Below are positions 18,563 to 51,975 of a stretch of DNA of 64,000 nt, one piece after another. The position numbers and the translations under genes are program-made. Source of the DNA: an uncultured delta proteobacterium (GTDB lineage Bacteria > Myxococcota_A > Polyangia > Fen-1088); contig CAVRSU010000011.1 of assembly GCA_963723955.1 (NCBI GenBank), positions 25,509 through 89,508 of the forward strand. The letters run 5' to 3'. Position 1 is the stretch's first letter, and each line of letters starts with the position of its first letter. The notes beneath the pieces are model-generated. The model made no database searches, had not been told where the DNA came from, and saw nothing but the letters and a program-made list of their open reading frames with translations.

Positions 18563-18590
18563 CAAACGGCGAAGTCTTTGACCCATAGTT

Positions 18591-18770: not shown

Positions 18771-18774
18771 ATTC

Positions 18775-20196: not shown

Positions 20197-20380
20197 ACCA
20201 ACTGCTCCTATGGTTTGAGGGCCTGCTGATTCCGCAACGATAAGAGAAAGGCTTGAACGAGAGTCCAACTGCTCTGCACCCGTCTGAGGCTTGTTGACGG
20301 GCTTTTGGGCGGCCGCAGCGAACACAGCATTTAAGCGCAGTCCCGTCCAGTATGTCCTTCTTCGATAGATGGCGCGCTAT

Positions 20381-20515
20381 CTTTTGGCAAGAAATGCGAA
20401 CTGATCTAGCTCCTCGCTAGAAGCACGCGCCGTGAGTAACGCGAATGCCAAAGTCGGCCAACTCCCCGCGTTGCACCCTCCCGGGTCGTCACGAGTTCGC
20501 ATTTTTTGCCAAAAG
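20381..20515. promoter_or_regulatory. Inverted pair of 22-bp operator-like sites between GH54 and araC
   Basis: CTTTTGGCAAGAAATGCGAACT (20381-20402) and AGTTCGCATTTTTTGCCAAAAG (20494-20515) are 21/22 reverse-complementary and share the TTCGCATTTYTTG core. Confidence 0.65.
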
Positions 20516-20613
20516 AATTCGCGGGCATGGCGGTCAGCGAACAGGCAGTGCGTTTTCCTGACCTGCGGAGCGGGAGCTAGGACTCTCTAGTGCTACAATT
20601 GGACAAGGCTGAC

Positions 20614-22841: not shown

Positions 22842-22856
22842 GGACTTGGCTCCAAG

Positions 22857-22878
22857 CTTCGCATTTCTTGGGATTCCT
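22857..22878 (+). promoter_or_regulatory. Putative operator upstream of the GH16 pair
   Basis: Identical to 16806-16827; 47 bp upstream of the ATG at 22926. Confidence 0.65.
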
Positions 22879-22925
22879 GCGCGGGCCTTCTTGGAAAGCT
22901 CGGGCCAGACGTTCATGGTGTCAGC

Positions 22926-24296: not shown

Positions 24297-24307
24297 GAGA
24301 CAAACGC

Positions 24308-25309: not shown

Positions 25310-25359
25310 GCGCGGCACCCCGTTTGGATTCGGAGACACAGCACGAAAGAGGTGCCGAC

Positions 25360-27330
<1,971 letters not shown>

Positions 27331-29181: not shown

Positions 29182-32055
29182 TTAGGCAACCGGTTGCGCA
29201 ACCCCGATCGACACAGCTTTGGATGGCTCGGTCTTGCGCGAGGCGGTTCGCAACTCCCCGGCGGGCGGAAGCTCGACCAGGACGTCGTCTCCTTCGACCT
29301 TGACCGCGAATGTCGCGATGGCTGGCAAGTCACCGTTCAAGCAGGCGCCGCTTCGCAGATCGAAGGTGTTCTTGTGCAGCGGACAGGCGACTTTGGGCTT
29401 TCCGTTCGTGTCACCCACAATCCCGCGTGCCAGAACCATCTGTTGTTTGTGCGGGCAAAGGTTCTCGCTGGCAAGCCACTCGCCGCGCGCGGCGAGATTG
29501 AAGATGGCAATTTCGCTGTCTCCGTAGCGGGCCGCGATGCCCCCGTTGCGCGGCACCTCGGAAACCTTGGCCATGCGGATCCACGTGCGTTTGGCTGCCG
29601 GTTGCTTGGCCTTCTCGACGAGCAGCGCCGCGGTCTCGGCATACTGCTTGAATTGCGCCCGCCGCTCGGGATCGCGCAGGACGCCGGCCCATTCACACTC
29701 GTAGGTGTCGACCAGATATTGCAGGTCGCGTTCCAGATCGGCCGCGATGCCAAGCGCATCGTCGACGATGATTTGGCGTAGCCGCTCGATACCCCCTTCC
29801 ATCTTGTCGAGCCAGACCGAGGTGCGGGTCAGACGATCCGCCGTGCGGATATAGAACATGATGAAGCGGTCGAGGTAGCGAATGGCGGTCTCGGCGTCGA
29901 CATCCTTGACCAGCACATCGGCGTGGCGCGGGTGGGCGCCGCCGTTGCCGCACACGAAGACGTTCCAGCCTTTCTCGGTGGCAATGAGCCCGAAATCCTT
30001 GCCCTGGGCCTCGGCGCACTCTCGAATGCAACCACTCACCGCGCTCTTCAGCTTGTGCGGGGCGCGGATGCCTTTGTAGCGTTCTTCGAGTCGGATGGCC
30101 ATGGCGGTCGAGTCCTGCACGCCAAAGCGACACCAGGTGGTGCCCACGCAGCTCTTGACCGTGCGCAGGGCCTTACCGTAGGCGTGGCCGCTTTCGAAGC
30201 CGGCGGCCACCAACTCCTCCCAGATGCTGGGCAGATCCTCGAGATGCGCGCCCAGCAGGTCCACACGCTGCGCGCCGGTGATCTTGCTGTGCAGGTCGAA
30301 CTTGCGCGCGACCTTGCCCAGGACGACCAGCTTCTCGGGCGTGATTTCGCCACCCGGAACACGCGGAATGACCGAATAGGTTCCATTCCTCTGCATGTTG
30401 GCTAGAAACCGATCGTTGGTGTCCTGCAAGGTGCGATGCTCTTCCTTCATCACCGGCTCGTTGAACAGACTGGCCAGGATCGAGGCCACGGTGGGCTTGC
30501 AGATCTCGCAGCCGCTGCCCTGGCCGTGCTCGCGGATCAGCTGCTCGAAGGTGTGAAGGCGCTTGCTGGCGACGATCTGAAAGAGATCCTGTCGGGTGTG
30601 GGCGAAGTGCTCGCACAAGCGCGGACGGACGGCCTTGCCCAGGGCCTTCAACTGGGCGCCGAGCAAATCGGTCACCACGGGCAGGCACCCGCCGCAGCCG
30701 GTGCCCGCGCGCGTGTGTTTCTTGAGCGCGTCGACGGTCAGACAATCCTCGTCGCGAACGCAGGCGCGGAGGTTCCCAGCCGAGACGTTGTTGCACGAGC
30801 AGACCTGCGCTTCGTCGGGCAGGACGAACGTCTGGGCCGCGCTCGATCCAGGGGTCATGCCGAGCTCGTCGAAGCCGTCGGAAAGCGTCGTGCCGGAGCG
30901 TGTGAGGTATTGCAGCCGCGCGTAGTCCTTCGCGTCGCCAACCAGAATGCCCCCGAGCAAGCGCTTGCTCTCGGCATCCACCACGAGCTTCTTGTACGTT
31001 CGTTTGATCTGGTCCTCGAACGCAAGCACGCGGACGCTGGGCGCCGACACGAAGGGATCGCCGAAGGACGCCACGTCCGTACCCATCAGCTTGAGCTTCG
31101 CCGACAGGTCGCCTCCGGTGAAGGACACGCTCTCGCCGGTGAGCGACCTGGCCAGGGTGTCCGCCATTTCGTAGCCGGGCGCCACCAAGCCGTAGATCAT
31201 CCCCTGGTGAAGCGCCACCTCGCCAATGGCGAAGATGCGCGGGTCGTTGGTGCGCAGCTGGTCGTCCACGACCACACCGCCACGCGGTCCCACTTCCAGG
31301 GCGGCCTTGCGCGCCAGCTCGTCGCGCGGCCGAATGCCCGCCGAAACGATGACCAGGTCGACGTTGATGATCTCTCCATCTGACAATTCGACGCCGGTGA
31401 CCGTTTCGTCGCCCACGAAGCGGGACATGCGTCGGTCGATGTGCACTGTTACCCCGAGGTCGCGAATGGATTGTTCCAGCATGGCCGAGGCGGCGCTGTC
31501 GAGCTGGCGAGGCATGAGTCGGGTGGCTACCTCGATGACGTGGGTTTCCAGGCCGCAGTCCTTCACGGCGCGCGCTGCCTCCAGCCCGAGAAGCCCTCCA
31601 CCGATGACGGCGGCTCGACGTGCGGAGGAAGCACGCGCGAGAATCGCCTCCAGATCCTCGATGGTTCGGTAGACGAAGACGCCCTTTTTGTCGACGCCGG
31701 GGACCGGGGGAACGAAGGGCGACGAACCCGTGGCTAGCACCAGCCAGTCGTAGCGATGTTGCTCGCCGGTCGCGGTCGTCACCTGGCCAGAGCTGCGGTC
31801 GATGTCCACGGCCAAAGTCCCGGTAAGAAGCTGGATGCCGCGTTCGGCGTACCAGTCCTTGGTTCCGAGGGCGAGATTGTCGGCCGAGCGATCCTTGAAG
31901 TAGTCGGTGAGGTGTACGCGGTCGTAGGCTGGCCGCGGCTCTTCGCCAAGAACCGTTACGCGCAGTCCGTGGGCGCGGTCGTATTCGACCACCTTCTCGC
32001 AAAAGCGATGGCCGACCATCCCGTTGCCGAGCACCAGCAGTGCTCCGGAATTCAA
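29182..32055 (-). CDS. nirB: NADH-dependent nitrite reductase, NirB-NirD fusion
   Basis: GNGMVG and GGGLLGLE, two BFD clusters, CVGTTWC and SGCIRECAE siroheme/FeS ligands, C-terminal Rieske CPH..CPLH. Confidence 0.95.
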   Translation of the reverse strand: MNSGALLVLGNGMVGHRFCEKVVEYDRAHGLRVTVLGEEPRPAYDRVHLTDYFKDRSADNLALGTKDWYAERGIQLLTGTLAVDIDRSSGQVTTATGEQHRYDWLVLATGSSPFVPPVPGVDKKGVFVYRTIEDLEAILARASSARRAAVIGGGLLGLEAARAVKDCGLETHVIEVATRLMPRQLDSAASAMLEQSIRDLGVTVHIDRRMSRFVGDETVTGVELSDGEIINVDLVIVSAGIRPRDELARKAALEVGPRGGVVVDDQLRTNDPRIFAIGEVALHQGMIYGLVAPGYEMADTLARSLTGESVSFTGGDLSAKLKLMGTDVASFGDPFVSAPSVRVLAFEDQIKRTYKKLVVDAESKRLLGGILVGDAKDYARLQYLTRSGTTLSDGFDELGMTPGSSAAQTFVLPDEAQVCSCNNVSAGNLRACVRDEDCLTVDALKKHTRAGTGCGGCLPVVTDLLGAQLKALGKAVRPRLCEHFAHTRQDLFQIVASKRLHTFEQLIREHGQGSGCEICKPTVASILASLFNEPVMKEEHRTLQDTNDRFLANMQRNGTYSVIPRVPGGEITPEKLVVLGKVARKFDLHSKITGAQRVDLLGAHLEDLPSIWEELVAAGFESGHAYGKALRTVKSCVGTTWCRFGVQDSTAMAIRLEERYKGIRAPHKLKSAVSGCIRECAEAQGKDFGLIATEKGWNVFVCGNGGAHPRHADVLVKDVDAETAIRYLDRFIMFYIRTADRLTRTSVWLDKMEGGIERLRQIIVDDALGIAADLERDLQYLVDTYECEWAGVLRDPERRAQFKQYAETAALLVEKAKQPAAKRTWIRMAKVSEVPRNGGIAARYGDSEIAIFNLAARGEWLASENLCPHKQQMVLARGIVGDTNGKPKVACPLHKNTFDLRSGACLNGDLPAIATFAVKVEGDDVLVELPPAGELRTASRKTEPSKAVSIGVAQPVA

Positions 32056-32447
32056 GACTGACCCCGTCCGCTTTTGGATCCGTCTGGGCTTCTGGGGTAA
32101 AGACCAAGCGCTTCAATGGCCTGGTTGCGCACGTATCTGGCCATCTCGTCGCTGTCGTCGGCGTCCTGGCAGCGGGTTAGTACCAGAACCAGGGCATCAC
32201 GAGCCTGCCGCAGCTCGTGCACAAGCCACATCACGTCCGAGAAAGCCTCGTGGTGGGCCACGCGGTAGGTGCGCTCCAATTCGCGTAGCCGCCACTCCAG
32301 TTTATTTCCGCCGCTCGCGGCCTTGCCGTCGCCGTAGCAGTCAGGGCAACTGACCGCTCCGTGCTCGGTGACGATTTCGCCGGTGCCGTAGCAGGTCTGG
32401 CAGTCGTGGCTCAAGTCCGGCATTGACCCTCCTCTTTGATTCATCAT
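32052..32447 (-). CDS. Hypothetical protein with a CxxCxGxG x2 zinc finger
   Basis: CQTCYGTG and CPDCYGDG; stop overlaps the nirB start. Alternative start at 32423. Confidence 0.7.
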   Translation of the reverse strand: MMNQRGGSMPDLSHDCQTCYGTGEIVTEHGAVSCPDCYGDGKAASGGNKLEWRLRELERTYRVAHHEAFSDVMWLVHELRQARDALVLVLTRCQDADDSDEMARYVRNQAIEALGLYPRSPDGSKSGRGQS

Positions 32448-32628
32448 TCCTCGCAGCTTGTGATGCTACTAGCACGCGCCAGGTTTCGTATCTGTTTCGT
32501 CCCCGGAAATCCTTGGCACCTCCGTCGAGGAATCGGCGACGCGATATTACCCAGATGAAACCTCCTCGATACAGGTAAACGGATAAATTCAGTCCGGTAT
32601 CAGTTGTGCCAATGACAAGGAGAACCAG

Positions 32629-33861
32629 ATGAACTTCACCTCTTTTCGAAAGACCGGGAGCTGGAAGAGTCTGCTCTCGGCCTTTCTGTACTTCGACGTT
32701 AGCTTCATGATTTGGGTCCTGTGCGGTGCGGTGGCGCTCTACATTTCCTCGGATTTCAAACTCAACGACGCGCAGAAGGCGCTCATGGTGTCGATCCCGA
32801 CCTTGGGTGGTGCCCTGCTGCGCATTCCCATGGGAATCCTCGCGGATCGTATCGGTTGCCGAAACACCGGACTGCTAGGCATGGCCATCACCTTCGTGCC
32901 GCTCGCCTGGGCGTGCTTTGCGGGCACGAGTTTTCACCAGGCCCTGGGATTTGGGCTGGTGCTCGGCGTGGCCGGCGCCAGCTTCGGCGTGGCGCTGCCG
33001 CTGGCCAGTCGCTGGTATCCGCCCAAGTACCAAGGCATGGCCATGGGCATCGCCGGGGCTGGCAACAGCGGCACGGCGCTTTCCACCTTCTTTGCCCCGC
33101 ACATCGCCGAGAAATTCGGATGGCACGCCGTCTTCGGTTTCGCGATGATTCCGCTGGCGCTCGTCTTCATCGCCTACTTCGTGTTGGCCAAGGACGCTCC
33201 CGACCGCCCAGCGCCCAAGAAATTGTCCGAATACCTGGCCATCTTCGGCCAGCTCGACATCGCCTGGTTTTCTCTGCTCTATGCGGTCACCTTTGGTGGC
33301 TTCGTCGGCCTCTCGACCTACCTCGGCATCGTCTTCTTCGACATCTACGGCGTGAAGGCCGTGGTGGGGGGACTTACCAAGGTTCAGGTCGGCTATCTGG
33401 TAACAGCGACGGTCATCGCCGGAAGTTTCTTCCGTCCCGTGGGTGGCTGGATCGCCGACAAGATCGGCGGCATGCGCCTCCTCACCGTGCTTTACGCCGT
33501 GGTGGCACTATGCTCGTTCTTGATCGCGAGCATGCCACGCTCGTTCTTGCTCATGTTGCTCATTGCCAGCGTGATGATGGCCTGTCTCGGCATGGGGAAC
33601 GGCGCCGTCTTTCAGCTCGTCCCTCAGCGTTTCAAGAAGGAGATCGGCGTGGCCACGGGCATCGTCGGCGCGGCGGGCGGCTTCGGCGGTTTCGCCTTGA
33701 CCAATTTCGTGCTGGGCCCGCTCAAGCAGGGCACGGGAAGCCACGTGGCGGGATTCTTGGCCGTGGCCTTCGTCGTGCTCTTGGTGCTCGGGATCTTCTC
33801 TTTCGTCAGCATCCGCTGGCGGCGAGGCTGGGCCGCGCAGACCGAAGCTGTTAGATACTAA
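32629..33861 (+). CDS. narK: NarK/NasA-family nitrate/nitrite MFS transporter
   Basis: LRIPMG, GIAGAGNSG, TFGGFVG, FRPVGG, GMGNGAVFQLVP nitrate-transporter signatures; AAGGAG RBS. Confidence 0.93.
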   Translation: MNFTSFRKTGSWKSLLSAFLYFDVSFMIWVLCGAVALYISSDFKLNDAQKALMVSIPTLGGALLRIPMGILADRIGCRNTGLLGMAITFVPLAWACFAGTSFHQALGFGLVLGVAGASFGVALPLASRWYPPKYQGMAMGIAGAGNSGTALSTFFAPHIAEKFGWHAVFGFAMIPLALVFIAYFVLAKDAPDRPAPKKLSEYLAIFGQLDIAWFSLLYAVTFGGFVGLSTYLGIVFFDIYGVKAVVGGLTKVQVGYLVTATVIAGSFFRPVGGWIADKIGGMRLLTVLYAVVALCSFLIASMPRSFLLMLLIASVMMACLGMGNGAVFQLVPQRFKKEIGVATGIVGAAGGFGGFALTNFVLGPLKQGTGSHVAGFLAVAFVVLLVLGIFSFVSIRWRRGWAAQTEAVRY

Positions 33862-33868
33862 ACACTGT

Positions 33869-36800
33869 ATGGGCATTGCCGCGACCCCAAGTACCCATCG
33901 AACAACCTGCTGCTACTGTGGCGTCGGCTGCGGAATTCTTGTTCGCAAGAATCGGGCCGGCGCCCTATCTGTTGAAGGAGATCCCGACCACCCGGTCAAT
34001 CGCGGCAAGCTTTGCTCCAAGGGACTGAACCTGCACACCACGGTGGACGACCGTTCGGACCGGTTGCTCCATCCAGAGTTACGCGAATCACGTTTGGCGC
34101 CGCGCAGGCGGGTGGGCTGGGACGAGGCGCTCGACAAGGTGGTCAGCGTCTTTCGCACCACGATGGAGAAGCACGGTCCGAGCTCGGTCGGCCTCTATGT
34201 GTCGGGGCAGTGTTTGACTGAGGAGTATTACCTCGCCAACAAGATCGCCAAGGGCTTCCTCGGCACCAACAACATCGACACCAATTCACGCTTGTGCATG
34301 AGCTCGGCGGTGGCCGGCTACAAGCTGGCGCTTGGCGAGGATTGCGTTCCTGGAACCTACGAAGACCTGGACCTCGCCGATTTGTATTTTGTTGCCGGCG
34401 CCAATCCCGCCTGGTGCCATCCCATCCTCTTTCGCCGCATGGAGGATAGGCTGCAGCGCGAGCCCAAGTCGGCGCGCATGATCGTCGTGGATCCGCGCCG
34501 TACCCAAAGCGCGGCCATGGCGGATCTGCACTTGCAGATCCAACCGGGCACGGACATCACGCTTTTCCATGCCATCGCGCGCAGGCTGATCGAGTCTGAT
34601 TTCGTCGACAGCGATTTCGTTCACGACCACGGCGAAGGCTTCGACGAGTTGCGCACGCGCGTTTGCGGCAGGACTCTGACCGAGGCAGCCGCCATCTGCC
34701 GTGTCGATGCCGCGGCCATCGAAACTGCGGCCAGGTGGATCGGCGAGTCGAAGGGTTTTGTCTCGCTTTGGGCCATGGGGCTCAACCAGAGCATGGTGGG
34801 CGTGAACAAGAATCTCGCCCTCATCAATCTGCACCTCTTGACCGGCAAGATCGGCAAACCCGGTCACGGCCCCTTCAGCCTGACCGGGCAGCCCAACGCC
34901 ATGGGTGGCCGTGAAGTGGGCGGCATGGCGAATCTGATGAGCGCCCACCGCGACATGAAGAACCCCATCCATCGCGACGAGATCGCGCGCTTTTGGGGCG
35001 TGCCCAGCGTGCCTGAGGCGCCGGGGCTTACGGCGGGCGAGATGATGGATGCGCTCTGCGACGGGCGACTCAAGGCCCTGTGGGTGATCTGCACCAATCC
35101 CCTCGTGAGCTGGCCGGATCTGACGAAGGCCGAGCGCGCGCTTGCGAGTGCCGAGTTCGTGGTGGTGCAAGACATTTCGATGCGCTCCGATACCCTGCGC
35201 TTCGCCGATGTGGTGTTGCCTGCCGCGGGTTGGCTCGAAAAAGAAGGGACCATGACCAACTCTGAGCGGCGCATCACCTACCTTTCGCCGGTGGTGGCGC
35301 CACCCGGAGAAGCCCTTCCCGACGGAGAAATTTTGCTACGCTTTGCCCGTAAGATGGGCTGGCACAAGCACTTCGACTACCAAGGCATGGCCGACGTCTA
35401 CCGCGAGCACGCGGCCCTGACCCAGGGCACGTCCATCGACATCAGCGGGCTCGACTACGGCCGGCTGAAACGGGAAGGCTCGGTGCAGTGGCCGGTGCCG
35501 CACGCCGAGCATCCGGGCACGCCGCGGCTTTTCACCGACGGCCGCTTCTATCGGCCGAACGGGCGGGCCAAGCTGCACGCCGTCCCGGATGACAACACCT
35601 CGGCGCCACCCAGCCCGGACTTTCCGCTCGTGCTCACCACCGGGAGAATTCGAGATCAGTGGCACACCATGACCCGGACTGGAAAGGTCGCCAAGTTGCG
35701 CAGCCACGATCCCCAGGCCCGCCTCGACATGCACCCGGGCGACGCTGCGGCTCGCGACATCGGCGAAGGCAACCTGGTGACGGTTTGCAGCCCGCGCGGC
35801 GAGGTGCGCCTGCGCGCGCGGTTGACCGAGGACATCAAGCCGGGCGTGGTGTTCCTGCCCATGCACTGGGGTCGCATCCTCGACCGCGACGACGTGCGCG
35901 CCAACAACCTCACCGAGGCGCGCTGGGATCCCATTTCCAAGGAGCCCGATCTGAAATTCACCACCGTCGAGGTGGTGCGCTTCCAGTCGCCGCGGCGAAA
36001 GATCGTGGTGGTCGGGGCGGGCGCGGCGGCGCTGGCGTTTCTGCGCGCGTACCGGCAGGACAATCAGGACGACGAGATCGTCGTGTTCAGCAAGGAGGAG
36101 ATCCCGTTCTACGACCGGGTTCGCTTGCCCGGGATCGTGGAGAGCAACGCTGACTGGCAATCCCTGGTCGTGCTGGGGCGGGACGAGGCCGAGTCCCTGC
36201 GCGTGCAGGTATCCAGCCCATGCGCCATCGTCGAAGTGGACCGCGCGCAGAAGCGCGTCCTCGATTCGCGCAGGCAGTGGCACGGCTATGATGTGCTGGT
36301 GCTGGCCACCGGCAGTCGGGCCGCGTGGCCCAAGGACACGCCCAAGAATCAGCGCGGCTTGCATGCCTTGCGCAGTTTCGCGGATGCGCAGGATATCTTG
36401 CGCTCGGTGGCCACCGGCCGAAGCGTGGCGATCGTCGGCGGCGGGCTTATCGGCATCGAATTGGGCGCCGTCCTGCGCGCCAAGGGACTCGATGTCCACA
36501 TCATTCAGCGTTCGGCCCAGCTGATGAACAAACAGCTGGACGAGGTCGCGGCCGAAATCCTGCGCGACGAGCTCGTCGACCGCGGCATCCACATCCACTT
36601 TCTCGAGCAGGTCGTCATGTGGAAGGGTGAAGGGTGGATCGACGAAGTGTTCCTGGCCTCGGGCAAGATCCTGCGCGATGTGACGTTGATCTACGCCATG
36701 GGTACGGTCCCGAACGTCGAGCTGGCCGGCGCCTGCGGTCTGATGGTCAATCGCGGCGTTGTGGTAGACCTGGCCATGCGCACGAGCGATCCTGACATCC

Positions 36801-37411
36801 TCGCCTTGGGCGAAATCGCCGAGCTCGACGGTCAGCTTCATGGCATCACCGCCGCCGCCGAAGAGCAAGCGTGGGTGGCGGCGGCGGCCTTGGCCGGAGA
36901 CGCGCAGGCCGTGTACCAAGGTTCGATGGCGCAGAACTTGGTCAAGGTGGACGGGCTCGCGGTGGTGAGCCTGGGCATTGCGCGGCCACCCGCCGATGAC
37001 TTGAGCTACGAGGAGATCGTCTACCTGGACCGAGCATCCCGCGTGTATCGAAAGTGCGTAATTCGCAACGACCGGTTGGTCGGCGCCCTACTGGTGGGCG
37101 ACAACAGCGACTTCGTTCAGTTGCGTGACCTTATTCGCAGCGGCGAAGAGCTCGGAGCTCGGCGCGCAGCCCTGTTGCGCGGGAATTCGAGAACCTCGCC
37201 GCGTGTTGGAGGCAAGATCGTGTGCAGCTGTACCTCCGTCGACGAAGGCGCCATTGGCCAGGCCTGCGAGCGCGGCGCCACGACCCTGCGAACCCTCATG
37301 GACGCCACGGGGGCGGGGACCGGCTGTGGCAGTTGTCGTCCCGAGATCGCCTCCATTCTGAAAACGCGCACGGCGGCTCCCGTCCAAGTCATCACGCGGG
37401 AGGCGTCGTGA
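33869..37411 (+). CDS. nasA: Assimilatory nitrate reductase fused to an FAD/NAD(P)H oxidoreductase and a BFD domain
   Basis: CCYCGVGC..LCSKG, NSRLCMSSA, GQPNAMGGRE, TTGRIRDQWHTMTRTG; then GAGAAA, GGGLIGIE and CSC..GTGCGSC. Confidence 0.93.
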   Translation: MGIAATPSTHRTTCCYCGVGCGILVRKNRAGALSVEGDPDHPVNRGKLCSKGLNLHTTVDDRSDRLLHPELRESRLAPRRRVGWDEALDKVVSVFRTTMEKHGPSSVGLYVSGQCLTEEYYLANKIAKGFLGTNNIDTNSRLCMSSAVAGYKLALGEDCVPGTYEDLDLADLYFVAGANPAWCHPILFRRMEDRLQREPKSARMIVVDPRRTQSAAMADLHLQIQPGTDITLFHAIARRLIESDFVDSDFVHDHGEGFDELRTRVCGRTLTEAAAICRVDAAAIETAARWIGESKGFVSLWAMGLNQSMVGVNKNLALINLHLLTGKIGKPGHGPFSLTGQPNAMGGREVGGMANLMSAHRDMKNPIHRDEIARFWGVPSVPEAPGLTAGEMMDALCDGRLKALWVICTNPLVSWPDLTKAERALASAEFVVVQDISMRSDTLRFADVVLPAAGWLEKEGTMTNSERRITYLSPVVAPPGEALPDGEILLRFARKMGWHKHFDYQGMADVYREHAALTQGTSIDISGLDYGRLKREGSVQWPVPHAEHPGTPRLFTDGRFYRPNGRAKLHAVPDDNTSAPPSPDFPLVLTTGRIRDQWHTMTRTGKVAKLRSHDPQARLDMHPGDAAARDIGEGNLVTVCSPRGEVRLRARLTEDIKPGVVFLPMHWGRILDRDDVRANNLTEARWDPISKEPDLKFTTVEVVRFQSPRRKIVVVGAGAAALAFLRAYRQDNQDDEIVVFSKEEIPFYDRVRLPGIVESNADWQSLVVLGRDEAESLRVQVSSPCAIVEVDRAQKRVLDSRRQWHGYDVLVLATGSRAAWPKDTPKNQRGLHALRSFADAQDILRSVATGRSVAIVGGGLIGIELGAVLRAKGLDVHIIQRSAQLMNKQLDEVAAEILRDELVDRGIHIHFLEQVVMWKGEGWIDEVFLASGKILRDVTLIYAMGTVPNVELAGACGLMVNRGVVVDLAMRTSDPDILALGEIAELDGQLHGITAAAEEQAWVAAAALAGDAQAVYQGSMAQNLVKVDGLAVVSLGIARPPADDLSYEEIVYLDRASRVYRKCVIRNDRLVGALLVGDNSDFVQLRDLIRSGEELGARRAALLRGNSRTSPRVGGKIVCSCTSVDEGAIGQACERGATTLRTLMDATGAGTGCGSCRPEIASILKTRTAAPVQVITREAS

Positions 37412-44567: not shown

Positions 44568-45797
44568 TCAGGCACGGTTGGACTCGCTGGGATCTTCCTT
44601 GGGTAGAAACTGCAACACCACCAAGGCCGGCGCTGCCATGGCCATGGTGGTGGCGAAAAAGACGGGCCAGCCCGCGGCCGAGATCAGGTAGCCAGCGCCC
44701 ACGCTGAGGGTGCGGCCCACGACCGTGGAGGCACTCGATAGCAAGGCGAACTGGGTGGCCGAAAACGACTTGTTACACAGGGACATGAGGAAGGCCATGA
44801 AGGCGGTCTCGGCCATACCGCTCGACAGGTTGTGGATGCCGATGGCTCCGGCCAGCAGGGCGTGATTCTTGCCAAGGATAGCCAGGGCGAGGTAGCCGCT
44901 GTTGGTGACCGAGGCGAGAACGCCGAAGAGCAGGAGCGCCTTGCGCACGCCAAGCTTGGCCACCATGCCGCCGCCGAGCAAGACCCCGACCGTCATGGCG
45001 GTGAAGCCCACGAGCTTGTACCAGGCTGCGATCTCGGTGCCCGAGAATCCCGTCTTGATGAGAAACGGCTGGATCATGCCGGACGCGACGAAGTCGCCGA
45101 GCTTGTAAAGCATGATGAACGCGATGCCAACGCCGGCGCCCCTGCGCGCGAAAAAATCAAGAAACGGTTTGGTGAAGGCGTCGGCCAAGGTGCGCGGCGG
45201 CCGAACCGCCTCGGGCTCGGGCGCATACCAGGTAATGACGATCATGGGCAGCATGAGCAGGGCCATGATTTTGAACACCGTGGGCCAAGCCAAGTAGTCC
45301 GACAGGGCTAGCGCAGCGGCGCCGGAAACGAGCATGGCGATGCGGTAGCCGAGAACGAAGGTCGAAGTGCCCGAGGCGCGCTCTTCGGGGGGCAGGACGT
45401 CGGTGCGGTAGGCGTCGCTCACGATGTCCTGGCTGGCGGAAAAGAACGCGACCACCAGTGCCGCCGCGGCCATGGCCACGGGTGCCGCGCGCGGATCCAC
45501 GGTGCTGGTGGCCCAGATGCCCAGCGCGATCCCGAGCTGGGTGAGCGCGATCCAACCGCGCCGCCGCCCGAGAAAGGGTAGGCTGAAACGGTCGAGCAAC
45601 GGCGCCCACAGAACCTTGAATGAGTAGGCCAACCCCACCGCCGAGAACAAGCCTATCGTCTTCAGGTTGACGCCGGCCTTGGTCATCCAGGTGCCCAGCG
45701 TCGAACCGGACATGGCAAGCGGCAGACCGGACGCGAAGCCCATGCCGATCATGATGAAGACCCGCTTGCTGCGGAATGCGCCGAGGAACGCCCCCAT
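44568..45797 (-). CDS. ampG: AmpG muropeptide MFS permease
   Basis: GFASGLP, KVLWAPLLD, GRRRGW, SASQDIVSDAYR, YKLGD, SATQFALLSS. Confidence 0.92.
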   Translation of the reverse strand: MGAFLGAFRSKRVFIMIGMGFASGLPLAMSGSTLGTWMTKAGVNLKTIGLFSAVGLAYSFKVLWAPLLDRFSLPFLGRRRGWIALTQLGIALGIWATSTVDPRAAPVAMAAAALVVAFFSASQDIVSDAYRTDVLPPEERASGTSTFVLGYRIAMLVSGAAALALSDYLAWPTVFKIMALLMLPMIVITWYAPEPEAVRPPRTLADAFTKPFLDFFARRGAGVGIAFIMLYKLGDFVASGMIQPFLIKTGFSGTEIAAWYKLVGFTAMTVGVLLGGGMVAKLGVRKALLLFGVLASVTNSGYLALAILGKNHALLAGAIGIHNLSSGMAETAFMAFLMSLCNKSFSATQFALLSSASTVVGRTLSVGAGYLISAAGWPVFFATTMAMAAPALVVLQFLPKEDPSESNRA

Positions 45798-45956: not shown

Positions 45957-46002
45957 ATTGCCTCATTCCGAGACCCGCAACACACCCAAAGGAGAAGCCA
46001 CC

Positions 46003-46275
46003 ATGTTGAAGAACATCCTCGTCATCCTCGGAATCGCCGCCATCACCAGCAGCTCTGCTTTCGCGGCCAGCGAGGCGCCGAAAACCCCCAAGACTCCGCC
46101 CGCCGCGCACAAGGTCGCGCAGGCCAGCGAAACCAAGCCGGCTGCGGCCAAGGCCGACAAGAAGATGAAGAAAGAAGCCAAGACGACTACGCCTGCTGCC
46201 GCCACCGAGAAGGCTCCCGCGGCCGCGAAGGCCCCTGCCGCCACCGAGAAGGTTCCCGCGCCCGCGAAGAAGTAA
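46003..46275 (+). CDS. Small secreted Ala/Lys/Pro-rich low-complexity protein
   Basis: AAAGGAG RBS, signal peptide ending AFA, AATEKAPA repeats. Confidence 0.75.
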   Translation: MLKNILVILGIAAITSSSAFAASEAPKTPKTPPAAHKVAQASETKPAAAKADKKMKKEAKTTTPAAATEKAPAAAKAPAATEKVPAPAKK

Positions 46276-46492: not shown

Positions 46493-47878
46493 ATGGCCGA
46501 CACACATACCCGACTTGCCCTGGACGATTTGCCCCCTGAGGTGCAGGCCATCCTCGCCAGCGAAATCCATCGCGGACAGCGCAATACCTTCGTCATCCGC
46601 ATCCTCTTCGCGGTCTTGGGAATCTCCAGCGCCTTGCAGGTTGCGAGCTCGAACTCGCCACAGACCACCCGAATCACAGTGGCAATGGGCGTGTTCTACC
46701 TGATCTTTTCGGTGATTGGATTCTACCTGGTTCGGAAACATATCGGCTTGGTGTGGTTGCGATACCTTGGGATCACGGTGGACACCACCAGTGTCACGGT
46801 GACCGCGCTCGCGAGCCTATTCAATCCGTCAGGCGCCTATGAAGTCCTGATTAGCTCCATTCCCCTCGTGCTGTACATGATGTTCAACATGCTTACTGCC
46901 TTGCAGTACAGCGTGAGGCTTTCCCTGTTCGCGGCGTTGATGGCTGGACTGCACCGGGCAGGCGTCCTCGTCTTCTGCGCGAAGAACCATCTGGTGGTTC
47001 TGTCGCCAACCTCCATCTACAGCCAACAGGCGCTAGGGCTGGACGACCAGGTGACCAACATCGTCTTCATCATGGTTGCCGGCGTTATCGCCGCGTGGGT
47101 ATCGCATACGTCCCGCCGACTGCTCTTGCAATCGGCCGAGGCCACCGTCCGAAAGCGTCGCCTAGAGAAGAACCAGGACGTGTATCGCCGGTACCTTTCC
47201 CCGCACGTGCGCGACCAGGCCATGAGAAATCCCGAGGTCCTGCACCTTGGGGGGCTGCGGCGGGTGGCGGTTGTTCTCGCTACCGAAATTCGAGACTTCG
47301 CGAAACTGGCCGATCGGCTTTCCCCCGAGGAAGTCGTGGAGATCCTGAACCACCACTATTCCATCCTGGTGGAGATCGTTTTCCGCCACGGTGGCACCTT
47401 GGACAAGTTCACGGAGGGAGGCCTCAGCGCCATTTTCGGTGTTCCCCACGACATGCCCGACGCGGCAGGCGCGGCGGTTCGTGCTGCCCTGGAAATGCAG
47501 GAGTCCGTGACCGAAGCCAGGGGCCGTGGCGACGAAAGGAAGCGCCAGCTGCGTATGGGGATCGGGATAGCACAGGGATTGGTCGTGGCCGGGAACATTG
47601 GCTCCAGCGAGCGTATGGAATACACGGTGGTGGGCAAGGCTGCGAACCTCTCCATCCGACTGCGGGCCTTGGCGCACAACCTCGATGCCGACATCCTCAT
47701 CAACGCTGCGGCCTACGACGCCGTCCGGGGCGTTTACCGGGCAGAGCGATTGCCGGCCGAGTTGGTCAACGCCATGCACCTGGATTCGGCGGTCTACCGC
47801 GTGGACCACAAAGACGCTCTCCTTGGGGACATGGATCCCAGCTCTTCGTCCTCGGGGTCGGGAACAAGCGTGCCGTGA
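46493..47878 (+). CDS. Membrane class III nucleotide cyclase-like protein with degenerate metal-binding sites
   Basis: About 6 TM segments, then ATEIRDF, DKFTEGG, MGIGIAQG, GNIGSSERMEYTVVG, NLSIRL. Confidence 0.85.
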   Translation: MADTHTRLALDDLPPEVQAILASEIHRGQRNTFVIRILFAVLGISSALQVASSNSPQTTRITVAMGVFYLIFSVIGFYLVRKHIGLVWLRYLGITVDTTSVTVTALASLFNPSGAYEVLISSIPLVLYMMFNMLTALQYSVRLSLFAALMAGLHRAGVLVFCAKNHLVVLSPTSIYSQQALGLDDQVTNIVFIMVAGVIAAWVSHTSRRLLLQSAEATVRKRRLEKNQDVYRRYLSPHVRDQAMRNPEVLHLGGLRRVAVVLATEIRDFAKLADRLSPEEVVEILNHHYSILVEIVFRHGGTLDKFTEGGLSAIFGVPHDMPDAAGAAVRAALEMQESVTEARGRGDERKRQLRMGIGIAQGLVVAGNIGSSERMEYTVVGKAANLSIRLRALAHNLDADILINAAAYDAVRGVYRAERLPAELVNAMHLDSAVYRVDHKDALLGDMDPSSSSSGSGTSVP

Positions 47879-48855
47879 ATTGCTACCAAGCCAACCGTCG
47901 CCGCCTGGATGGGATCATGGACAGGATCGTCCGCCGCATGCGCGCGTACCCACCGGCCCTGCGCCAGTTGGGCCAGGAATGGCTTGCGACCCTGGGTTCC
48001 GATCCCCGTGGTTATCACTCGGCGCCGGACGCTCCGCCGCTGTTGCACTTGCCGATCTGGATGGTGGAAGGGCGCCGGGGCAATGGCGCAAAGTTCGGCG
48101 AACCGCCGTTGAACGCCATCCTGGAGGCCACGGCACTGCTCTATTTCCACACGCGCATCCAAGACAACGTGGTGGACGAACCGCAGACACGCGGTCGGCC
48201 GCCCCAGCTGCTCTTGGGCAACATGTTCTTTCTGGAGGCATGGGAGCGTCTGCGATCCTTGCCTCTCTCGGATCGCTTCTGGTCTCGGACGAACGAGGCC
48301 TGGCGGATCTTTTGCAACGAAACGGAAGCGGAGCGTCGGCAACTGCAGCGCCAAACACCCTATTCGTCCGCGCTGTTCCGTCGCCACGCTCGCAAAGTGG
48401 CCCTGGCACGCATTCCCTTGTACGCGGTTGTAGATGGCGACAAGAGCGGCGACAAAACTGCTATCGACACCTTCATCGACCGCCTCGGCCAAGCCTATGG
48501 ATTGGTGAATGATGTGCTCGGCGTGGAACGGGATCTGTCGGCGGGCATGCGCACCTACTTGATCGCCGCCGTGGAAGAAGCCCTGCCCAAGCGGCGTCGC
48601 ACCGATCCCGTGGCCGTGCGCAGGGAACTATTGAGGAACCCACATTTGGAGCGTTTCTTGGAACAAGTCATCGCTCTTCACCGACGGATACGACTCCTCG
48701 GTGAGGCCTTGGGGATCGCTCGCATGGGGCCCTACACGGACGAACGCATCGAGCGGATCCGTTTCCACCACGCCCGCGCCCTCGACCTGCGCCTGCGCTG
48801 GGCACTGTCTGGAAAGGAATGGCCCCGTGGCGGCGCGGCTGCTAAACATCGTTAG
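47875..48855 (+). CDS. Class I isoprenoid synthase-fold protein
   Basis: RIQDNVVDE (DDxxD-like), ARK, LVNDVLGVERD (second Asp-rich/NSE-like motif); GTGA overlap with the cyclase gene. Confidence 0.7.
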   Translation: MNCYQANRRRLDGIMDRIVRRMRAYPPALRQLGQEWLATLGSDPRGYHSAPDAPPLLHLPIWMVEGRRGNGAKFGEPPLNAILEATALLYFHTRIQDNVVDEPQTRGRPPQLLLGNMFFLEAWERLRSLPLSDRFWSRTNEAWRIFCNETEAERRQLQRQTPYSSALFRRHARKVALARIPLYAVVDGDKSGDKTAIDTFIDRLGQAYGLVNDVLGVERDLSAGMRTYLIAAVEEALPKRRRTDPVAVRRELLRNPHLERFLEQVIALHRRIRLLGEALGIARMGPYTDERIERIRFHHARALDLRLRWALSGKEWPRGGAAAKHR

Positions 48856-48896
48856 CCGTCCCTGAAACCATGAACTGACGGCAAGGAGTGAGGACG

Positions 48897-49145
48897 ATGG
48901 CGAAAAAAGGAATGAACGTTCCGCAAGCGGACAGCAAGAAAGTGCAAGAGATCATTGGTCGCGCGCTAACCGACAAGAAGTTCCTGACGGCCTTGAAGAA
49001 GGATGCCCGGAAGACACTGGTGGGTTACGAGCTGGAAACGGCCACCTTGGTGCAGATCGAGAAAGGCCTGAAGCTCCAGGCGCAACTTGAGGGGCTGGAG
49101 GATCAACTCGCGGAGGACTTCGGCATACACGTCGAGATGGGCTGA
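48897..49145 (+). CDS. Small protein with NHLP-clan (Os1348/Franean1_4349-like) leader
   Basis: VQEIIGRALTDKKFLTALKKDARKTLVGYEL fits the IIGRAxxDxxFxxxLxxDxxxxLxGYxL pattern; strong RBS. Confidence 0.65.
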   Translation: MAKKGMNVPQADSKKVQEIIGRALTDKKFLTALKKDARKTLVGYELETATLVQIEKGLKLQAQLEGLEDQLAEDFGIHVEMG

Positions 49146-49164
49146 CAAACGGTACGCCTTTACC

Positions 49165-49195
49165 AGAGGGGCGGGGCCACAGGTTCCGCCCCTCT
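49165..49195 (+). terminator. Strong intra-operon stem-loop
   Basis: AGAGGGGCGGGGCC-ACA-GGTTCCGCCCCTCT (14-bp stem including G-U pairs). Confidence 0.65.
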
Positions 49196-49286
49196 CCAAT
49201 TTCGGCGCGGGGAAACCGACCTATCGATATTCCCAACGGCCGCTGGCGGCGGCTGATGGGATTAGCGCTGAGTAGGCCCGACCGGC

Positions 49287-50270
49287 GTGGTACGCTGCTG
49301 CTGCTTGCAGAGACAGGTCACGAGCTCGGTTCGGCTTTCGTCGTCCATCCTGTGGGACGCAGTGGATCGCGCGCTTGCCTACTTGCTGACCTGCCAACTT
49401 CCGTCGGGCGCCATCAACGATGTCATTGCCAATCCTCTCGCCGCCCTGGCGCGGGCGCGCCCGTCGCGACGGGTTGCCTTTCGCTTGAGGGGCGGCGCCG
49501 ACATTTGGCACACGACCCAGGCAATTTTGGCCTTTACTGCTGCCGGAAAACCCAATTCAGCAGCCCAGCGCTTCGTGCGCACCCGTATCTCCCGACGAGG
49601 AGAATTGTCCTACTGGAGTGGGCACCCGAGCCTGTGCATCGAAACCTGCTCGGCGGCCTGGCATGCCCTGCCGAGCCTGCGCGTCCGCCTAGCCGCGACG
49701 TTGGTCCGGCATGCCTTGCCCGGTGGGCGGTGGCCCAACTTCATCTTGCCTGGCCGAGGCGGCTACGATTCGTACCTTGCCGGCCCTTCGGTCACCGCGT
49801 GGGCCATCGGCACACTGGGTGCCAGCCATCCGCTGGCCGCCCCAGGCCGGGCGTACTTGCGAGAAACGCTTGCCTCCGACGGGCTGTGGCGCGCGCACCC
49901 GGCCTTCTATGCAACACCCTACTATCCAGCGCACTTGGCCGTGGCTCACGTCGGTGAAAAGCGGAACGCGGTGGTGCGCGCGACCCTGCGCCAGCAAAGT
50001 CCCGCAGGCGGGTGGGGCTTCGCGGGCTTTGCGGACCGTCCTAGTCCTCTTCCAACCGCGTTCGCCATTCGCACCCTGGTCGCCGCAGGTGCACGGATAC
50101 CTCAATGCGAGGGGGCGCTCGCGCGGGGCGTCGGATGGCTGCTGACTGCACAGTCGGCAAACGGGGCGTTTCGGCTTGCGCCGGCCCCCGCAGCGCTTTT
50201 CTACGCCGGTGACGTCTACGCGACGTGTGTTGCCATTTCGGCCCTGATTTCCGTCGAGAAGGCGCTTTGA
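49287..50270 (+). CDS. Prenyltransferase/squalene-oxidase-repeat (alpha/alpha barrel) protein; start uncertain
   Basis: QW-like repeats RALAYLLTCQLPSG, LRQQSPAGGWG, GVGWLLTAQSANGAF; no DXDD motif seen. Confidence 0.72.
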   Translation: MVRCCCLQRQVTSSVRLSSSILWDAVDRALAYLLTCQLPSGAINDVIANPLAALARARPSRRVAFRLRGGADIWHTTQAILAFTAAGKPNSAAQRFVRTRISRRGELSYWSGHPSLCIETCSAAWHALPSLRVRLAATLVRHALPGGRWPNFILPGRGGYDSYLAGPSVTAWAIGTLGASHPLAAPGRAYLRETLASDGLWRAHPAFYATPYYPAHLAVAHVGEKRNAVVRATLRQQSPAGGWGFAGFADRPSPLPTAFAIRTLVAAGARIPQCEGALARGVGWLLTAQSANGAFRLAPAPAALFYAGDVYATCVAISALISVEKAL

Positions 50271-50274: not shown

Positions 50275-51975
50275 TTAGTCGCTGTTCCCGGTCAGGGCGG
50301 TGAATTCGACGGCGGCGTCCTCCGCGTCGGCGGAACCTCGCTTCACGGCAACCCGGTAGGGGCGTCCAGTCGATCGGGCCGCGTGCTCGATCACTCCGGC
50401 AAGCCAATCGTGCAGCGACGGAGGGGTGCGGGCAAAGCCGGTGACCTCGATGCGCAGCGATTCTGGGGCGCCTTCCAGACTCCACCTTCCAAAGTCGAAC
50501 AGGCCCGAAAGGATGGGTAGCACCGCACGAAGTGCAGCGTAACCATTGGCCTGGTTGCGCGCCGAACGCAGCAGGGTGAGCAGATCCGTCTCAACCCCGG
50601 CGTAGCCAAGCGCGCACCAGCGTTCAGCGTCGTCGTGGACCGCGACTTGGTTGCTAATTTGGAGGTAAGCCGCAATCTGCGGAAGGCTGTACCACGCTTC
50701 GGCCGACGGAGCGCCCGTACGGAAGATGTCACGGGTTTCGCGGGGCAAGGCACCCACGATTTCCTCGCGCACGTCGCCACCGTAGCGCGTGGCGATCGCG
50801 CGATCCATCGCCAAGAGCACTGCACCCTGCACGCTTCCGGCGGCGGCTTGGTTTGGGCGGCGTCTTCCGACGATGGGCAGATCCGAAAAGGTCTGCGAGA
50901 GCTTGCGCTTCGCTGGCTCGGCACGAGTCGGCGAGCCTTGTGCAGTGACTTTGGGCTCGGCAAAGAGCTGCTTGGAAGTGTCGCCGCGTGTGGTGGGCAG
51001 GCCGGTCTTGCTGCCCGCGCGCGGTGTCGGCGGGCTCGGCGGATTCCAGCTCTCAGATCCGCTCGGCGAATGCACGTCGAGGTCGCGCAAGGCAGCCTCG
51101 CGCGCGGAAGCCTCGGGCGCAATCTTCTCCAGGTGGTACGCGAATTCGGCGGCCGAAGAGAAGCGTTCATCGCGCTTTTTGCAAAGCGCTTTCGCCAAAA
51201 TTTGTGCCACAGCCGGATCGTCTAGGCCACCGGACTCGGCAAGCGACGGCACGGGTTCGTGGACGATTCGATAGGTGGTTGTGACGAATGTCGGGCCATG
51301 AAAAGGCCGCCTTCCAGTGAGCAGCTCGAACATCAGCGAGCCCGCGGCAAAGAGGTCGCTGCGCCCGTCGACTTCGCCATCGGCTGTGATCTGTTCCGGC
51401 GATAGGTAGTCGGGAGTTCCCAAAATCATCCCCGATTCAGTCCTGATCGACGATTCGCCGTCTTCGTGGATCTTGGCCACACCGAAGTCGAGCAGCTTGA
51501 CTCTCGGCGGGGCTCCTGCGCAAGCCTGCAGAAAGACGTTGGCCGGCTTGAGGTCACGGTGAACGATATCGGCCTTGTGGGCCGCCGCCAGCGCATCGAG
51601 AACCTTCAATAGGATCGCGGCCACGCACGCGAATGGCAGTTTCGGGATGCGGTCGAGTACCTGGGCCAGCGATTCGCCACTGAGGTATTCCATCGCGATG
51701 TATGGGATCGCATCCGCGTAGCCAGCGTCGAAAACCGAGACGATGTTCGGGTGGCCGACACGATTGATGGCCCGTCCCTCGCGGAAGAACCTTTGCACCA
51801 TTTCGGAGTCGCGTCCGGTTTCCTCGATAAGAAGCTTCAACGCGAGCACATTGCCGGCCAAGATGTTACGAGCGCGAAACACTTCCCCCGACGCGCCACG
51901 GCCCAGCAAGTGTAGAAGCAGATACTTCTGCGCAATGAGATCCCCAGCGGTGAAACTGCGAGTCACAAAAGGCAT
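50275..51975 (-). CDS. Ser/Thr protein kinase with a C-terminal myxobacterial (DUF2378-like) domain
   Basis: LGRGASGEV, ALK, HRDLKPAN, DFG, GTPDYLSPE; C-terminal SVQGAVL..AWYSL.. Confidence 0.9.
   Translation of the reverse strand: MPFVTRSFTAGDLIAQKYLLLHLLGRGASGEVFRARNILAGNVLALKLLIEETGRDSEMVQRFFREGRAINRVGHPNIVSVFDAGYADAIPYIAMEYLSGESLAQVLDRIPKLPFACVAAILLKVLDALAAAHKADIVHRDLKPANVFLQACAGAPPRVKLLDFGVAKIHEDGESSIRTESGMILGTPDYLSPEQITADGEVDGRSDLFAAGSLMFELLTGRRPFHGPTFVTTTYRIVHEPVPSLAESGGLDDPAVAQILAKALCKKRDERFSSAAEFAYHLEKIAPEASAREAALRDLDVHSPSGSESWNPPSPPTPRAGSKTGLPTTRGDTSKQLFAEPKVTAQGSPTRAEPAKRKLSQTFSDLPIVGRRRPNQAAAGSVQGAVLLAMDRAIATRYGGDVREEIVGALPRETRDIFRTGAPSAEAWYSLPQIAAYLQISNQVAVHDDAERWCALGYAGVETDLLTLLRSARNQANGYAALRAVLPILSGLFDFGRWSLEGAPESLRIEVTGFARTPPSLHDWLAGVIEHAARSTGRPYRVAVKRGSADAEDAAVEFTALTGNSD

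Follow-up and report, generated by a model that had tools for sequence, protein, structure and literature searches.

The 64,000-nt stretch of DNA analysed here (hereafter the window; all coordinates are window positions) lies on contig CAVRSU010000011.1 of an uncultured delta proteobacterium of the Fen-1088 lineage, which is a soil or peat myxobacterium. At 46493–50270 it carries four open reading frames (ORFs) on the same strand, which an earlier description made from the letters of the DNA (the sequence-only reading) had presented as a candidate hybrid between terpene-enzyme genes and genes for a peptide that is made by the ribosome and modified after translation (RiPP). All four co-oriented ORFs lie where that reading had placed them. 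Gene 1 (46493–47878, plus strand) encodes a multi-span membrane protein with a class III cyclase homology domain, gene 2 (47875–48855, plus strand) a 326-aa enzyme with a predicted trans-isoprenyl diphosphate synthase (trans-IDS) fold, gene 3 (48897–49145, plus strand) an 82-aa small protein of the NHLP clan (Os1348 family) that is the presumed precursor, and gene 4 (49287–50270, plus strand) a 327-aa QW-repeat alpha/alpha-barrel protein. The cassette is abutted at gene 4 by a convergent gene on the minus strand (50275–51975), which encodes a 566-aa Ser/Thr protein kinase.

The GTG start codon of the enzyme gene at 47875 overlaps the TGA stop codon of gene 1 (47876–47878); this GTGA coupling, as well as the DNVVD and NDVLGVERD motifs that had been pointed out in the enzyme, is indeed present in the sequence. 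Of the 33 homologues aligned, 31 conserve the N-terminus read from GTG 47875 and the remaining two are shorter gene calls; we therefore regard this codon as the correct start of the enzyme, and not Met15 as in some database calls. The small gene is preceded by a GGAG box.

No Pfam or NCBIfam family, Pfam polyprenyl_synt included, matched the 326-aa enzyme at E ≤ 1. Its AlphaFold2 model, built from an alignment of 33 sequences, is all helical (pLDDT 91.2, pTM 0.88), and a Foldseek search with this model gave 31 matches in the Protein Data Bank (PDB) at E ≤ 0.001. The matches listed, with TM scores of 0.46–0.62, are trans-polyprenyl, octaprenyl and geranylgeranyl diphosphate (GGPP) synthases, bifunctional terpene synthases (in their prenyltransferase cores) and the prenyltransferase Ord1. 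The sequence profile of the enzyme found hexaprenyl synthase component B and GGPP synthase at E 0.26–0.29, values that are not significant on their own; these alignments put RIQDNVxDEPxTRG on the first motif rich in aspartate (FARM) and YGLVNDVLG on the second (SARM). The enzyme carries a FARM-like segment, RIQDNVVDEPQTRG, and a pseudo-SARM, YGLVNDVLGVERD. The first motif reads D83-N-V-x-D87, followed by TRG, and the second N198-D199-V-L-G202; over the 33 sequences D83, D87, R92, K160, N198, D199, G202 and D206 are invariant. Relatives as distant as 26% identity (26–35%) mostly have a full DDxxD as their first motif, while the second stays [NDT]Dxx[GD]xxxD. Because of the modelled fold, its neighbours in the PDB and the invariant motifs, the product of gene 2 is best described as a diverged trans-IDS-type enzyme, in which the predicted site for the allylic diphosphate and the metal is kept and the second motif is altered.

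This enzyme belongs to a large group of proteins. A word-based search found 54 relatives, none of which has a Pfam domain or an informative name. A profile search against 1.84 billion representatives yielded 774 clusters at E ≤ 0.001, of which 289 at E ≤ 1e-10 and 33 at E ≤ 1e-30 (clusters at 50% identity). The family, for which there is no Pfam model, comprises at least 774 such clusters. When Pfam was run on 134 of the 150 best representatives, six isoprenoid-synthase hits were obtained at E ≤ 1e-4, namely three to polyprenyl_synt (all under the cut-off), two to Terpene_syn_C_2 and one to SQS_PSY. The genome also contains four canonical PF00348 polyprenyl synthase genes, which could supply a prenyl donor. 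In two other members of the superfamily (P0170 and P0197) a geranylgeranyl-reductase-like FAD domain is fused to the synthase-fold domain.

The sequence-only reading had recognised an NHLP-clan-like leader in the 82-aa protein, and the profile searches bear this out. Residues 15–73 match NF038399 ('Os1348 family NHLP clan protein') with 40.4 bits (E 2.3e-10), a borderline score given the cut-off of 40. The small proteins of relatives scored 61.4, 50.9 and 42.7 bits, and two others fell under the cut-off with 38 and 28.1 bits; those reaching it are the proteins of the window and of the related loci L027, L031 and L014. In the PDB, the profile of the small-protein family found 6lk7_A, a nitrile hydratase alpha chain of 85 aa (E 2.8e-5), several other alpha subunits of nitrile hydratase (E 1.5e-4 to 5e-3) and, at E 0.01, the NHLP leader chimera 8tb1_A. 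Pfam Frankia_peptide matched the window protein with 24.9 bits, under its cut-off, and a search for papers on 'Franean1_4349' found none.

The leader-like domain of the small protein ends at an invariant Phe75 and is followed by a tail of only seven residues, GIHVEMG. Classical NHLP precursors have a Gly-Gly type leader cleavage site, which is followed by a longer core rich in Cys, Ser and Thr. There is no GG motif in the window protein, and TIGR03793, the model of the classical NHLP leader, did not match it at E ≤ 1 and gave only 22.6–29.1 bits for its relatives, against a cut-off of 50.9. A classical TIGR03793-type precursor was therefore rejected. Among 53 homologues the length is constant within clades (82 aa, or 76–77 aa). 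Their tails follow FG[IVLM][HEQSK]V[EQ]M[GVA] in the window clade, FL[AS]RG[DE]Y.. in a second clade and D[RK].AA-like patterns in others, and the sole recurring feature is an acidic or amide residue three to six residues from the end. In two members of the window clade (L011, 6930–7265; L021, 1774–2184) the small NHLP-like protein has a Lys/Arg-rich N-terminal extension of 35–60 residues, which is unusual for a leader peptide.

Directly 3' of the small gene, at 49165–49195 on the plus strand, folding reveals a perfect, G+C-rich 14-bp hairpin without a T-run. The 80-nt stretch that contains it has a folding energy of −38.1 kcal/mol (z −3.69), and none of 200 shuffled sequences was equally stable. 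L004, L005 and L027 have a similar hairpin behind the small gene, and L011 and L031 do not. A scan for promoters and terminators gave no promoter-like site and six terminator-like sites against 4.7 expected, and it did not flag this hairpin, which lacks a T-run. Two peat metatranscriptome runs from one study contain contigs lying on the small gene (48926–49142 and 48869–49091; zero to one differences, at least 99% identical). They are the only contigs of these two runs on the 3.9-kb stretch, other parts of which are covered by DNA runs. These contigs are compatible with an abundant precursor transcript, which is a weak hint given that the data are contigs and that carry-over of DNA into RNA libraries is possible; missing RNA contigs over the other cassette genes are no evidence of silence.

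The product of gene 1 has hydrophobic spans in residues ~30–205, where five windows exceed a Kyte-Doolittle value of 1.5; in our own reading a sixth span lies near residues 88–110. The spans are followed by a Guanylate_cyc domain (PF00211, 54 bits against a cut-off of 21.9). The catalytic positions of this family, two metal-binding aspartates, a Lys/Asp pair specifying the substrate and a transition-state Asn and Arg, are partly replaced in the window protein: the first metal-binding Asp is Glu, the second is Gly and the adenine-specifying Asp is Lys, with Lys, Asn and Arg kept. Thus, the 'membrane cyclase-like protein' of the sequence-only reading is right as to membrane spans and cyclase domain, but both metal-binding aspartates are absent. 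We aligned 15 cassette cyclases, five from the window clade and ten from other clades. All ten of the latter are canonical, with FxDIRxFT, KFxGDG and IGDTVNxAARL, whereas the five of the window clade are degenerate (position of the first Asp: E, E, Q, G, G; of the second: G, G, S, D, Q; of the adenine-specifying Asp: K, K, K, P, Q). The window clade is monophyletic with a support of 100/100. The membrane domains of all loci are homologous (26–88% identity).

The convergent kinase was identified by a Pkinase match of 145.8 bits and has a C-terminal domain of ~200 aa that belongs to no known family. A search of the PDB with this domain found no relative, and the domain occurs only in loci of the window clade. 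Homologues of the kinase are convergent to the cassette in L004, L005, L011 and L021, and the gene is conserved beside the cassette in the window clade only. Both signalling proteins give partial matches to TIGR03903 ('TOMM system kinase/cyclase fusion protein'), with E 3.3e-7 for the cyclase and E 3.3e-41 for the kinase, although the scores, 28.5 and 141 bits, are far under the cut-off of 705.75.

The barrel protein by itself matches SQHop_cyclase_C only weakly (22 bits, under the cut-off of 26.1). In the PDB, the profile of its family of 27 proteins matched squalene-hopene cyclase (E 1.9e-12) as well as further class II cyclases with E values up to 2.8e-6, by which the product of gene 4 is assigned to the QW-repeat alpha/alpha barrels of the terpene-cyclase/prenyltransferase superfamily. 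The earlier description as a QW-repeat barrel without DXDD holds, in view of this profile match and the absence of the motif from the family. Invariant residues include C36, D72, C117, E119, H216 and the GGW at 241–243. Beta subunits of protein prenyltransferases share this fold, work with an alpha-subunit partner and have a zinc site of Asp, Cys and His. The corresponding model PF00432 gave 12.6 bits on the barrel against a cut-off of 26.5; C117, C121 and H216 are conserved, and no alpha-subunit-like gene was found in the cassette. The barrel gene is present in the window and in L004, L005, L011, L021 and L022, either upstream of the cyclase gene or downstream of the peptide gene, and a search of five genomes of sister clades with its profile found nothing. 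We therefore count the QW barrel as an accessory part of the cassette. A natural fusion exists in the enzyme superfamily: P0216 (1075 aa) combines a QW barrel (hhalign 96%, E 3.9e-9, 256 columns) with a synthase-fold domain and 430 further residues of unknown nature. This fusion and those with the FAD domain are an argument for a joint action of barrel and enzyme on isoprenoids.

When one genome per species was scanned, a relative of the enzyme was found to be encoded at 13 loci, nearly all in metagenome-assembled genomes (MAGs) of Myxococcota, plus Archangium lansingense. The small gene directly follows the enzyme gene on the same strand at 11 of the 13 loci; the two misses are the most distant loci (26–27% identity), on short contigs. 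At 10 of the 13, the enzyme gene is preceded by a co-oriented gene for a homologous membrane cyclase. In 401 genomes of the phylum, the enzyme profile was found in 24 and the peptide profile in 23, both occurred in 17, and in 12 the two genes were adjacent on one strand; this sample partly repeats the 13 earlier loci, and the relatives are not independent. The enzyme and cyclase trees have their supported groups in common, without any supported conflict, and the branches of the enzyme tree are about twice as long. The proposed co-occurrence of the genes is thus confirmed by synteny for enzyme and peptide. However, the three-gene unit that had been proposed needs amendment: its enzyme and peptide genes stand, but with the QW barrel only accessory the conserved unit consists of cyclase, enzyme and peptide. 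One of the loci, L006, is in a record titled Klebsiella pneumoniae MAG; since its G+C content is 64% and it groups with Myxococcota cassettes in both trees, this label is probably a binning or labelling error. We found no description of the cassette in the literature that we searched; related genome mining may be dealt with in Hubrich et al. (2024) and in a 2026 review from the same author.

Relatives without the QW barrel carry a different gene in its place. In the sister clade, a gene for a 348-aa protein with an invariant HExxH starts 1–4 bases after the peptide gene. Peptidase_M50 was detected in all eight members of this family and an N-terminal PqqD domain of the RRE type in four of the eight. 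Among the NCBIfam models it matches the daptide intramembrane metalloprotease NF041824 (E 4.6e-11), the YydH/LiaK epipeptide protease NF058609 (E 4.6e-4) and the lasso PqqD chaperone (E 0.0096), at scores that are far under the equivalog cut-offs (42.5 against 300); its profile had no match in the PDB. An RRE-fused protease beside the small gene is a strong context for a RiPP precursor. The sequence-only reading had listed YcaO, LanM, radical SAM, peptidase and exporter genes as missing beside the cassette. For the first four this is true of the window, but its relatives in the sister clade do have the RRE-fused M50/HExxH protease, and an MFS transporter gene (44568–45797) lies nearby, on the opposite strand ~700 bases upstream of the cassette. 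In none of the related loci searched is this MFS gene conserved next to the cassette.

Other relatives differ further in gene content. L014 and L023, from Archangium lansingense and a relative, have a methyltransferase, the enzyme, a second methyltransferase and a longer peptide with a 25-residue tail rich in Gly, Ser, Thr and Asp, and nearby a convergent 1350-aa cyclase-AAA-TPR protein, a P450 and a kumamolisin/S8-type peptidase. This variant looks like a fuller biosynthetic cluster, and it is found in a cultured strain. Distant relatives of the enzyme at L029 (6988–8988), L033 (5754–8201), L034 (130–2127) and L035 (6875–8881) are fusions of 665–815 aa, in which an N-terminal synthase-fold domain is joined to a radical SAM/SPASM maturase-like domain; they adjoin histidine kinases and EAL or HD-GYP response regulators, and no NHLP-like gene was detected adjacent to them. 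In other clades, proteins of 541 and 592 aa are encoded downstream. They have no family match and are not alike, and the 592-aa protein contains a weak QW-like stretch (hhalign 27.8%; PDB E 0.1–0.5).

The closest known system, by analogy, is PalP/PalX/PalQ, followed by ComQXPA. In the published account of Paenibacillus alvei, as far as it was available to us, PalP is a histidine kinase, PalX an NHLP-type precursor of which cleavage leaves a C-terminal core of 8 residues, and PalQ a prenyltransferase of the isoprenoid-synthase superfamily (PMC10853753). The window protein is likewise a presumed NHLP-type precursor of ~80 aa with a short C-terminal core (eight residues in PalX, seven after Phe75 here), and in both systems an enzyme of this superfamily and a membrane signalling protein are adjacent, without YcaO, LanM or radical SAM. 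In contrast to the histidine kinase PalP, however, the partner in the window is a multi-span cyclase-type protein together with a Ser/Thr kinase, and there is an extra QW barrel. Moreover, PalQ is described as strictly requiring a C-terminal Trp, which the window peptide does not have, and the Gln before the SARM, tied to Trp recognition, is Gly in the window enzyme. In these comparisons the enzyme was set beside PalQ and ComQ by published descriptions.

ComQ, in the same source, 'possesses the FARM ... lacks the SARM' (PMC10853753). This agrees with our trans-IDS-like enzyme, which has kept its FARM and lost its SARM and, as in ComQXPA, has beside it a small presumed precursor gene whose last few residues would form the product and a putative polytopic membrane sensor. 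ComX differs from the window peptide in that it does not belong to the NHLP type and is reported to be prenylated on Trp, and ComP is a histidine kinase with the regulator ComA. ComQ and ComX are also hypervariable between pherotypes, whereas tails in the window family are conserved within clades and show no hypervariability.

In ChrPC and NctPC, according to the part of a 2026 review that we could consult, a prenyltransferase is fused to an MstE-like cyclase domain and the acceptor is Trp (PMC13290415). Enzyme and barrel are separate genes in the window, and its barrel is dispensable across clades and lacks DxDD; the counterpart of such fusions within the window superfamily is P0216. A further likeness concerns clusters of the NHLP-type TOMM class, in which TIGR03903 kinase/cyclase fusion proteins stand beside the precursor. 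As in those clusters, an NHLP-clan precursor here adjoins a Ser/Thr kinase and a cyclase-homology signalling protein, but there is no cyclodehydratase and the modifying enzyme has an isoprenoid-synthase fold. The sister-clade protease resembles the HExxH proteases of daptides and epipeptides and adds an N-terminal PqqD-like domain; it was absent from the search of the window's own genome. Finally, the transmembrane domain of class III adenylate cyclases has been called a 'blind spot' of signal transduction, and its six-helix anchors have been proposed as orphan receptors, at least in the parts of these papers accessible to us (PMC4821796, PMC11606603, PMC12414865). The cassette has the same arrangement, a cyclase homology domain directly behind a polytopic membrane domain, and adds genetic linkage to a candidate lipidated ligand, although the catalytic domain is degenerate in the window clade and has a canonical active site in the sister clades only.

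We tentatively favour the explanation, to which we would give slightly less than an even chance, that the cassette is a Myxococcota version of the ComQ/ComX and PalQ/PalX cassettes and produces a prenylated-peptide signal. The sequence-only reading had proposed a peptide prenylation or lipidation pathway, or a signal system with its own receptor; this fits what is published of PalP/PalX/PalQ. Folds, motifs, family memberships and co-inheritance are what the analysis demonstrates, while the peptide as substrate, prenylation as its modification, the site of this and the sensing of the product are parts that we infer. The enzyme would bind an allylic prenyl diphosphate, provided by the ordinary polyprenyl synthases, through its conserved first Asp-rich motif. 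It would dock the NHLP-like leader of its presumed peptide substrate and transfer the isoprenoid to a residue or the carboxylate in the short C-terminal tail of fixed length. The QW barrel, where present, might bind or further process the isoprenoid, and is probably not a classical DxDD cyclase. In the sister clades, the RRE-fused intramembrane HExxH protease would release the modified tail. The lipidated peptide would then be tied to signalling, and possibly be sensed, through the multi-span membrane domain of the cyclase-type protein. The output in the sister clades would be cyclic AMP (cAMP), whereas in the window clade, where the cyclase domain has lost its metal ligands, output through the neighbouring Ser/Thr kinase seems more likely.

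Several observations weigh against this explanation. The characterised trans-IDS-like peptide prenyltransferases (ComQ, PalQ and the P domain of ChrPC) all target Trp and share a Gln before the SARM, as stated in the accessible part of the review (PMC13290415). As the sequence-only reading had noted, the putative core contains no Trp or Cys, which we confirmed for the whole 82-aa protein; in the 53 homologues Trp is found in only three, in C-terminal position in only one, and no candidate acceptor is common to all clades. The Gln position immediately upstream of the SARM is Gly195 in the window enzyme and Gly in at least 90% of the 33 sequences; farther relatives do keep the Gln. Tails of fixed length without hypervariability would also suit a folded accessory protein. 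The D.D[DE] pattern, the DxDD general-acid motif, occurs in none of 20 members of the barrel family. With its metal-binding aspartates lost, the window 'cyclase' is probably not an active adenylate cyclase. The receptor role of the membrane domain is suggested by gene neighbourhood alone, and this part of the protein is only modestly more diverged than the catalytic part. The RRE-M50 profile had no match in the window's genome, which at 86% completeness is not proof of absence, and no exporter was found for the window clade.

The most serious alternative, though in our judgement an unlikely one, accepts that the enzyme prenylates or otherwise modifies the peptide but takes the result to be either a natural product, secreted or active on membranes, or a protein anchored by its lipid. 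Cyclase and kinase would regulate its production, a role that has been proposed for the kinase/cyclase proteins next to TOMM precursors of the NHLP type. Such a regulatory role is suggested by the partial TIGR03903 matches of both proteins and by the 1320–1350-aa kinase- or cyclase-AAA-TPR regulators that stand beside the enzyme/peptide pair in relatives. The cluster-like additions of methyltransferases, P450 and S8 peptidase in the Archangium-type loci point in the same direction, as does the lack of a diversification of the tails comparable to that of pheromone pherotypes. Yet, the membrane domain of the cyclase is inherited together with the enzyme in all clades, which is more than a generic regulator would need, and neither an exporter nor an immunity gene is conserved.

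Somewhat less probable still is that enzyme and barrel make a free terpenoid or an unusual prenyl diphosphate, with the small protein as an accessory subunit or regulator, as in the heteromeric hexaprenyl and heptaprenyl diphosphate synthases. The best match to the PDB at the sequence level (E 0.26, not significant) is component B of a heterodimeric hexaprenyl synthase, which ranks seventh with Foldseek, and the pseudo-SARM NDxxGxxxD resembles the NSE/DTE motif of class I terpene cyclases. Some members of the superfamily give sub-threshold matches to Terpene_syn_C_2 or SQS_PSY, and a small protein of fixed length, with a conserved tail and no classical acceptor, would be readily explained. However, this small protein belongs to a clan of leader peptides and is followed, 1–4 bases downstream in relatives, by an RRE-fused protease of the RiPP type. 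In addition, far relatives fuse the synthase-fold domain to radical SAM/SPASM domains resembling peptide maturases, and the described substrate of PalQ is exactly such an NHLP protein.

Quite improbable, in our view, is that the synthase-fold protein transfers no prenyl group to the peptide and serves as a leader-binding scaffold or pseudo-enzyme, or has its active site plugged by the acidic tail of the peptide. In the far relatives the domain does occupy the place that an RRE usually has in radical SAM peptide maturases, the second Asp-rich motif is degenerate, and the acidic or amide residue near the C-terminus of the peptide recurs. A scaffold, however, would not be expected to keep D83, D87, R92, K160, N198, D199 and D206 invariant over 33 sequences, with the motifs retained down to 26% identity. 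An anti-phage defence system built around cyclase and kinase is very improbable: PADLOC did match PycC (Pycsar cyclase) to the cyclase domain (best E 9.7e-16) and PD-T4-6 to the kinase, but these matches are generic and there are none for enzyme, peptide or barrel, the cyclase lacks its metal ligands, no typical Pycsar effector is present, and the type I restriction genes of the window are 37 kb away.

The surroundings of the cassette are of mixed content. The type I restriction-modification genes occupy 31–9599 and comprise HsdM (31–1602), an AAA_13 protein, a KilA-N protein and HsdR (6750–9599); the initial 6 kb of these fall within a stretch that is poorer in G+C (0.56–0.58, against 0.62–0.65 elsewhere) and may be an island. 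A polysaccharide-use cluster at 15025–27330 contains two genes of the GH5 cellulase family, arabinofuranosidase B, GH16, GH3, an AraC regulator and an MFS_2 sugar transporter. Genes for assimilatory nitrate and nitrite reduction follow at 29182–37411, with an MFS gene between the two; one encodes a 957-aa NirB-like protein with a Rieske-like C-terminus and the other a protein of 1180 aa in which a Pyr_redox_2/BFD reductase module is fused to a molybdopterin oxidoreductase. Just upstream of the cassette, at 46002–46275, lies a gene for a small protein rich in Ala, Lys and Pro that begins like a signal peptide (MLKNILVILGIAAITSSSAFA). The flanking MFS, GDT1, LamG and Lys/Ala/Pro-rich secreted proteins were considered as parts of the cassette and rejected, since they are not conserved in related loci.

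If the cassette does make a peptide signal, this signal is probably of a kind not yet studied, because its peptide lacks the Trp that is the target of all such enzymes described in the sources at hand. More generally, as the peptides of this family almost never contain Trp, the cassette would imply either a new acceptor chemistry or a new role for an NHLP-like protein. It also provides a genetic link between a candidate lipidated peptide and the membrane domains of class III adenylate cyclases, whose ligands are an open question in the literature accessible to us. The sister clades, which have kept active cyclases and a dedicated protease, offer a direct way to test this link between ligand and cyclase. 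A bolder proposal, which we consider an outside chance, is that the unannotated trans-IDS-like branch of 774 clusters prenylates NHLP-type peptides at a site other than Trp, possibly a carboxylate or the C-terminus, that the polytopic membrane domain of a class III adenylate cyclase has the resulting lipopeptide as its native ligand, and that the window clade has been rewired to a pseudo-cyclase plus kinase. If true, this would give the membrane anchor of a class III cyclase its first natural ligand-receptor pair with genetic linkage.

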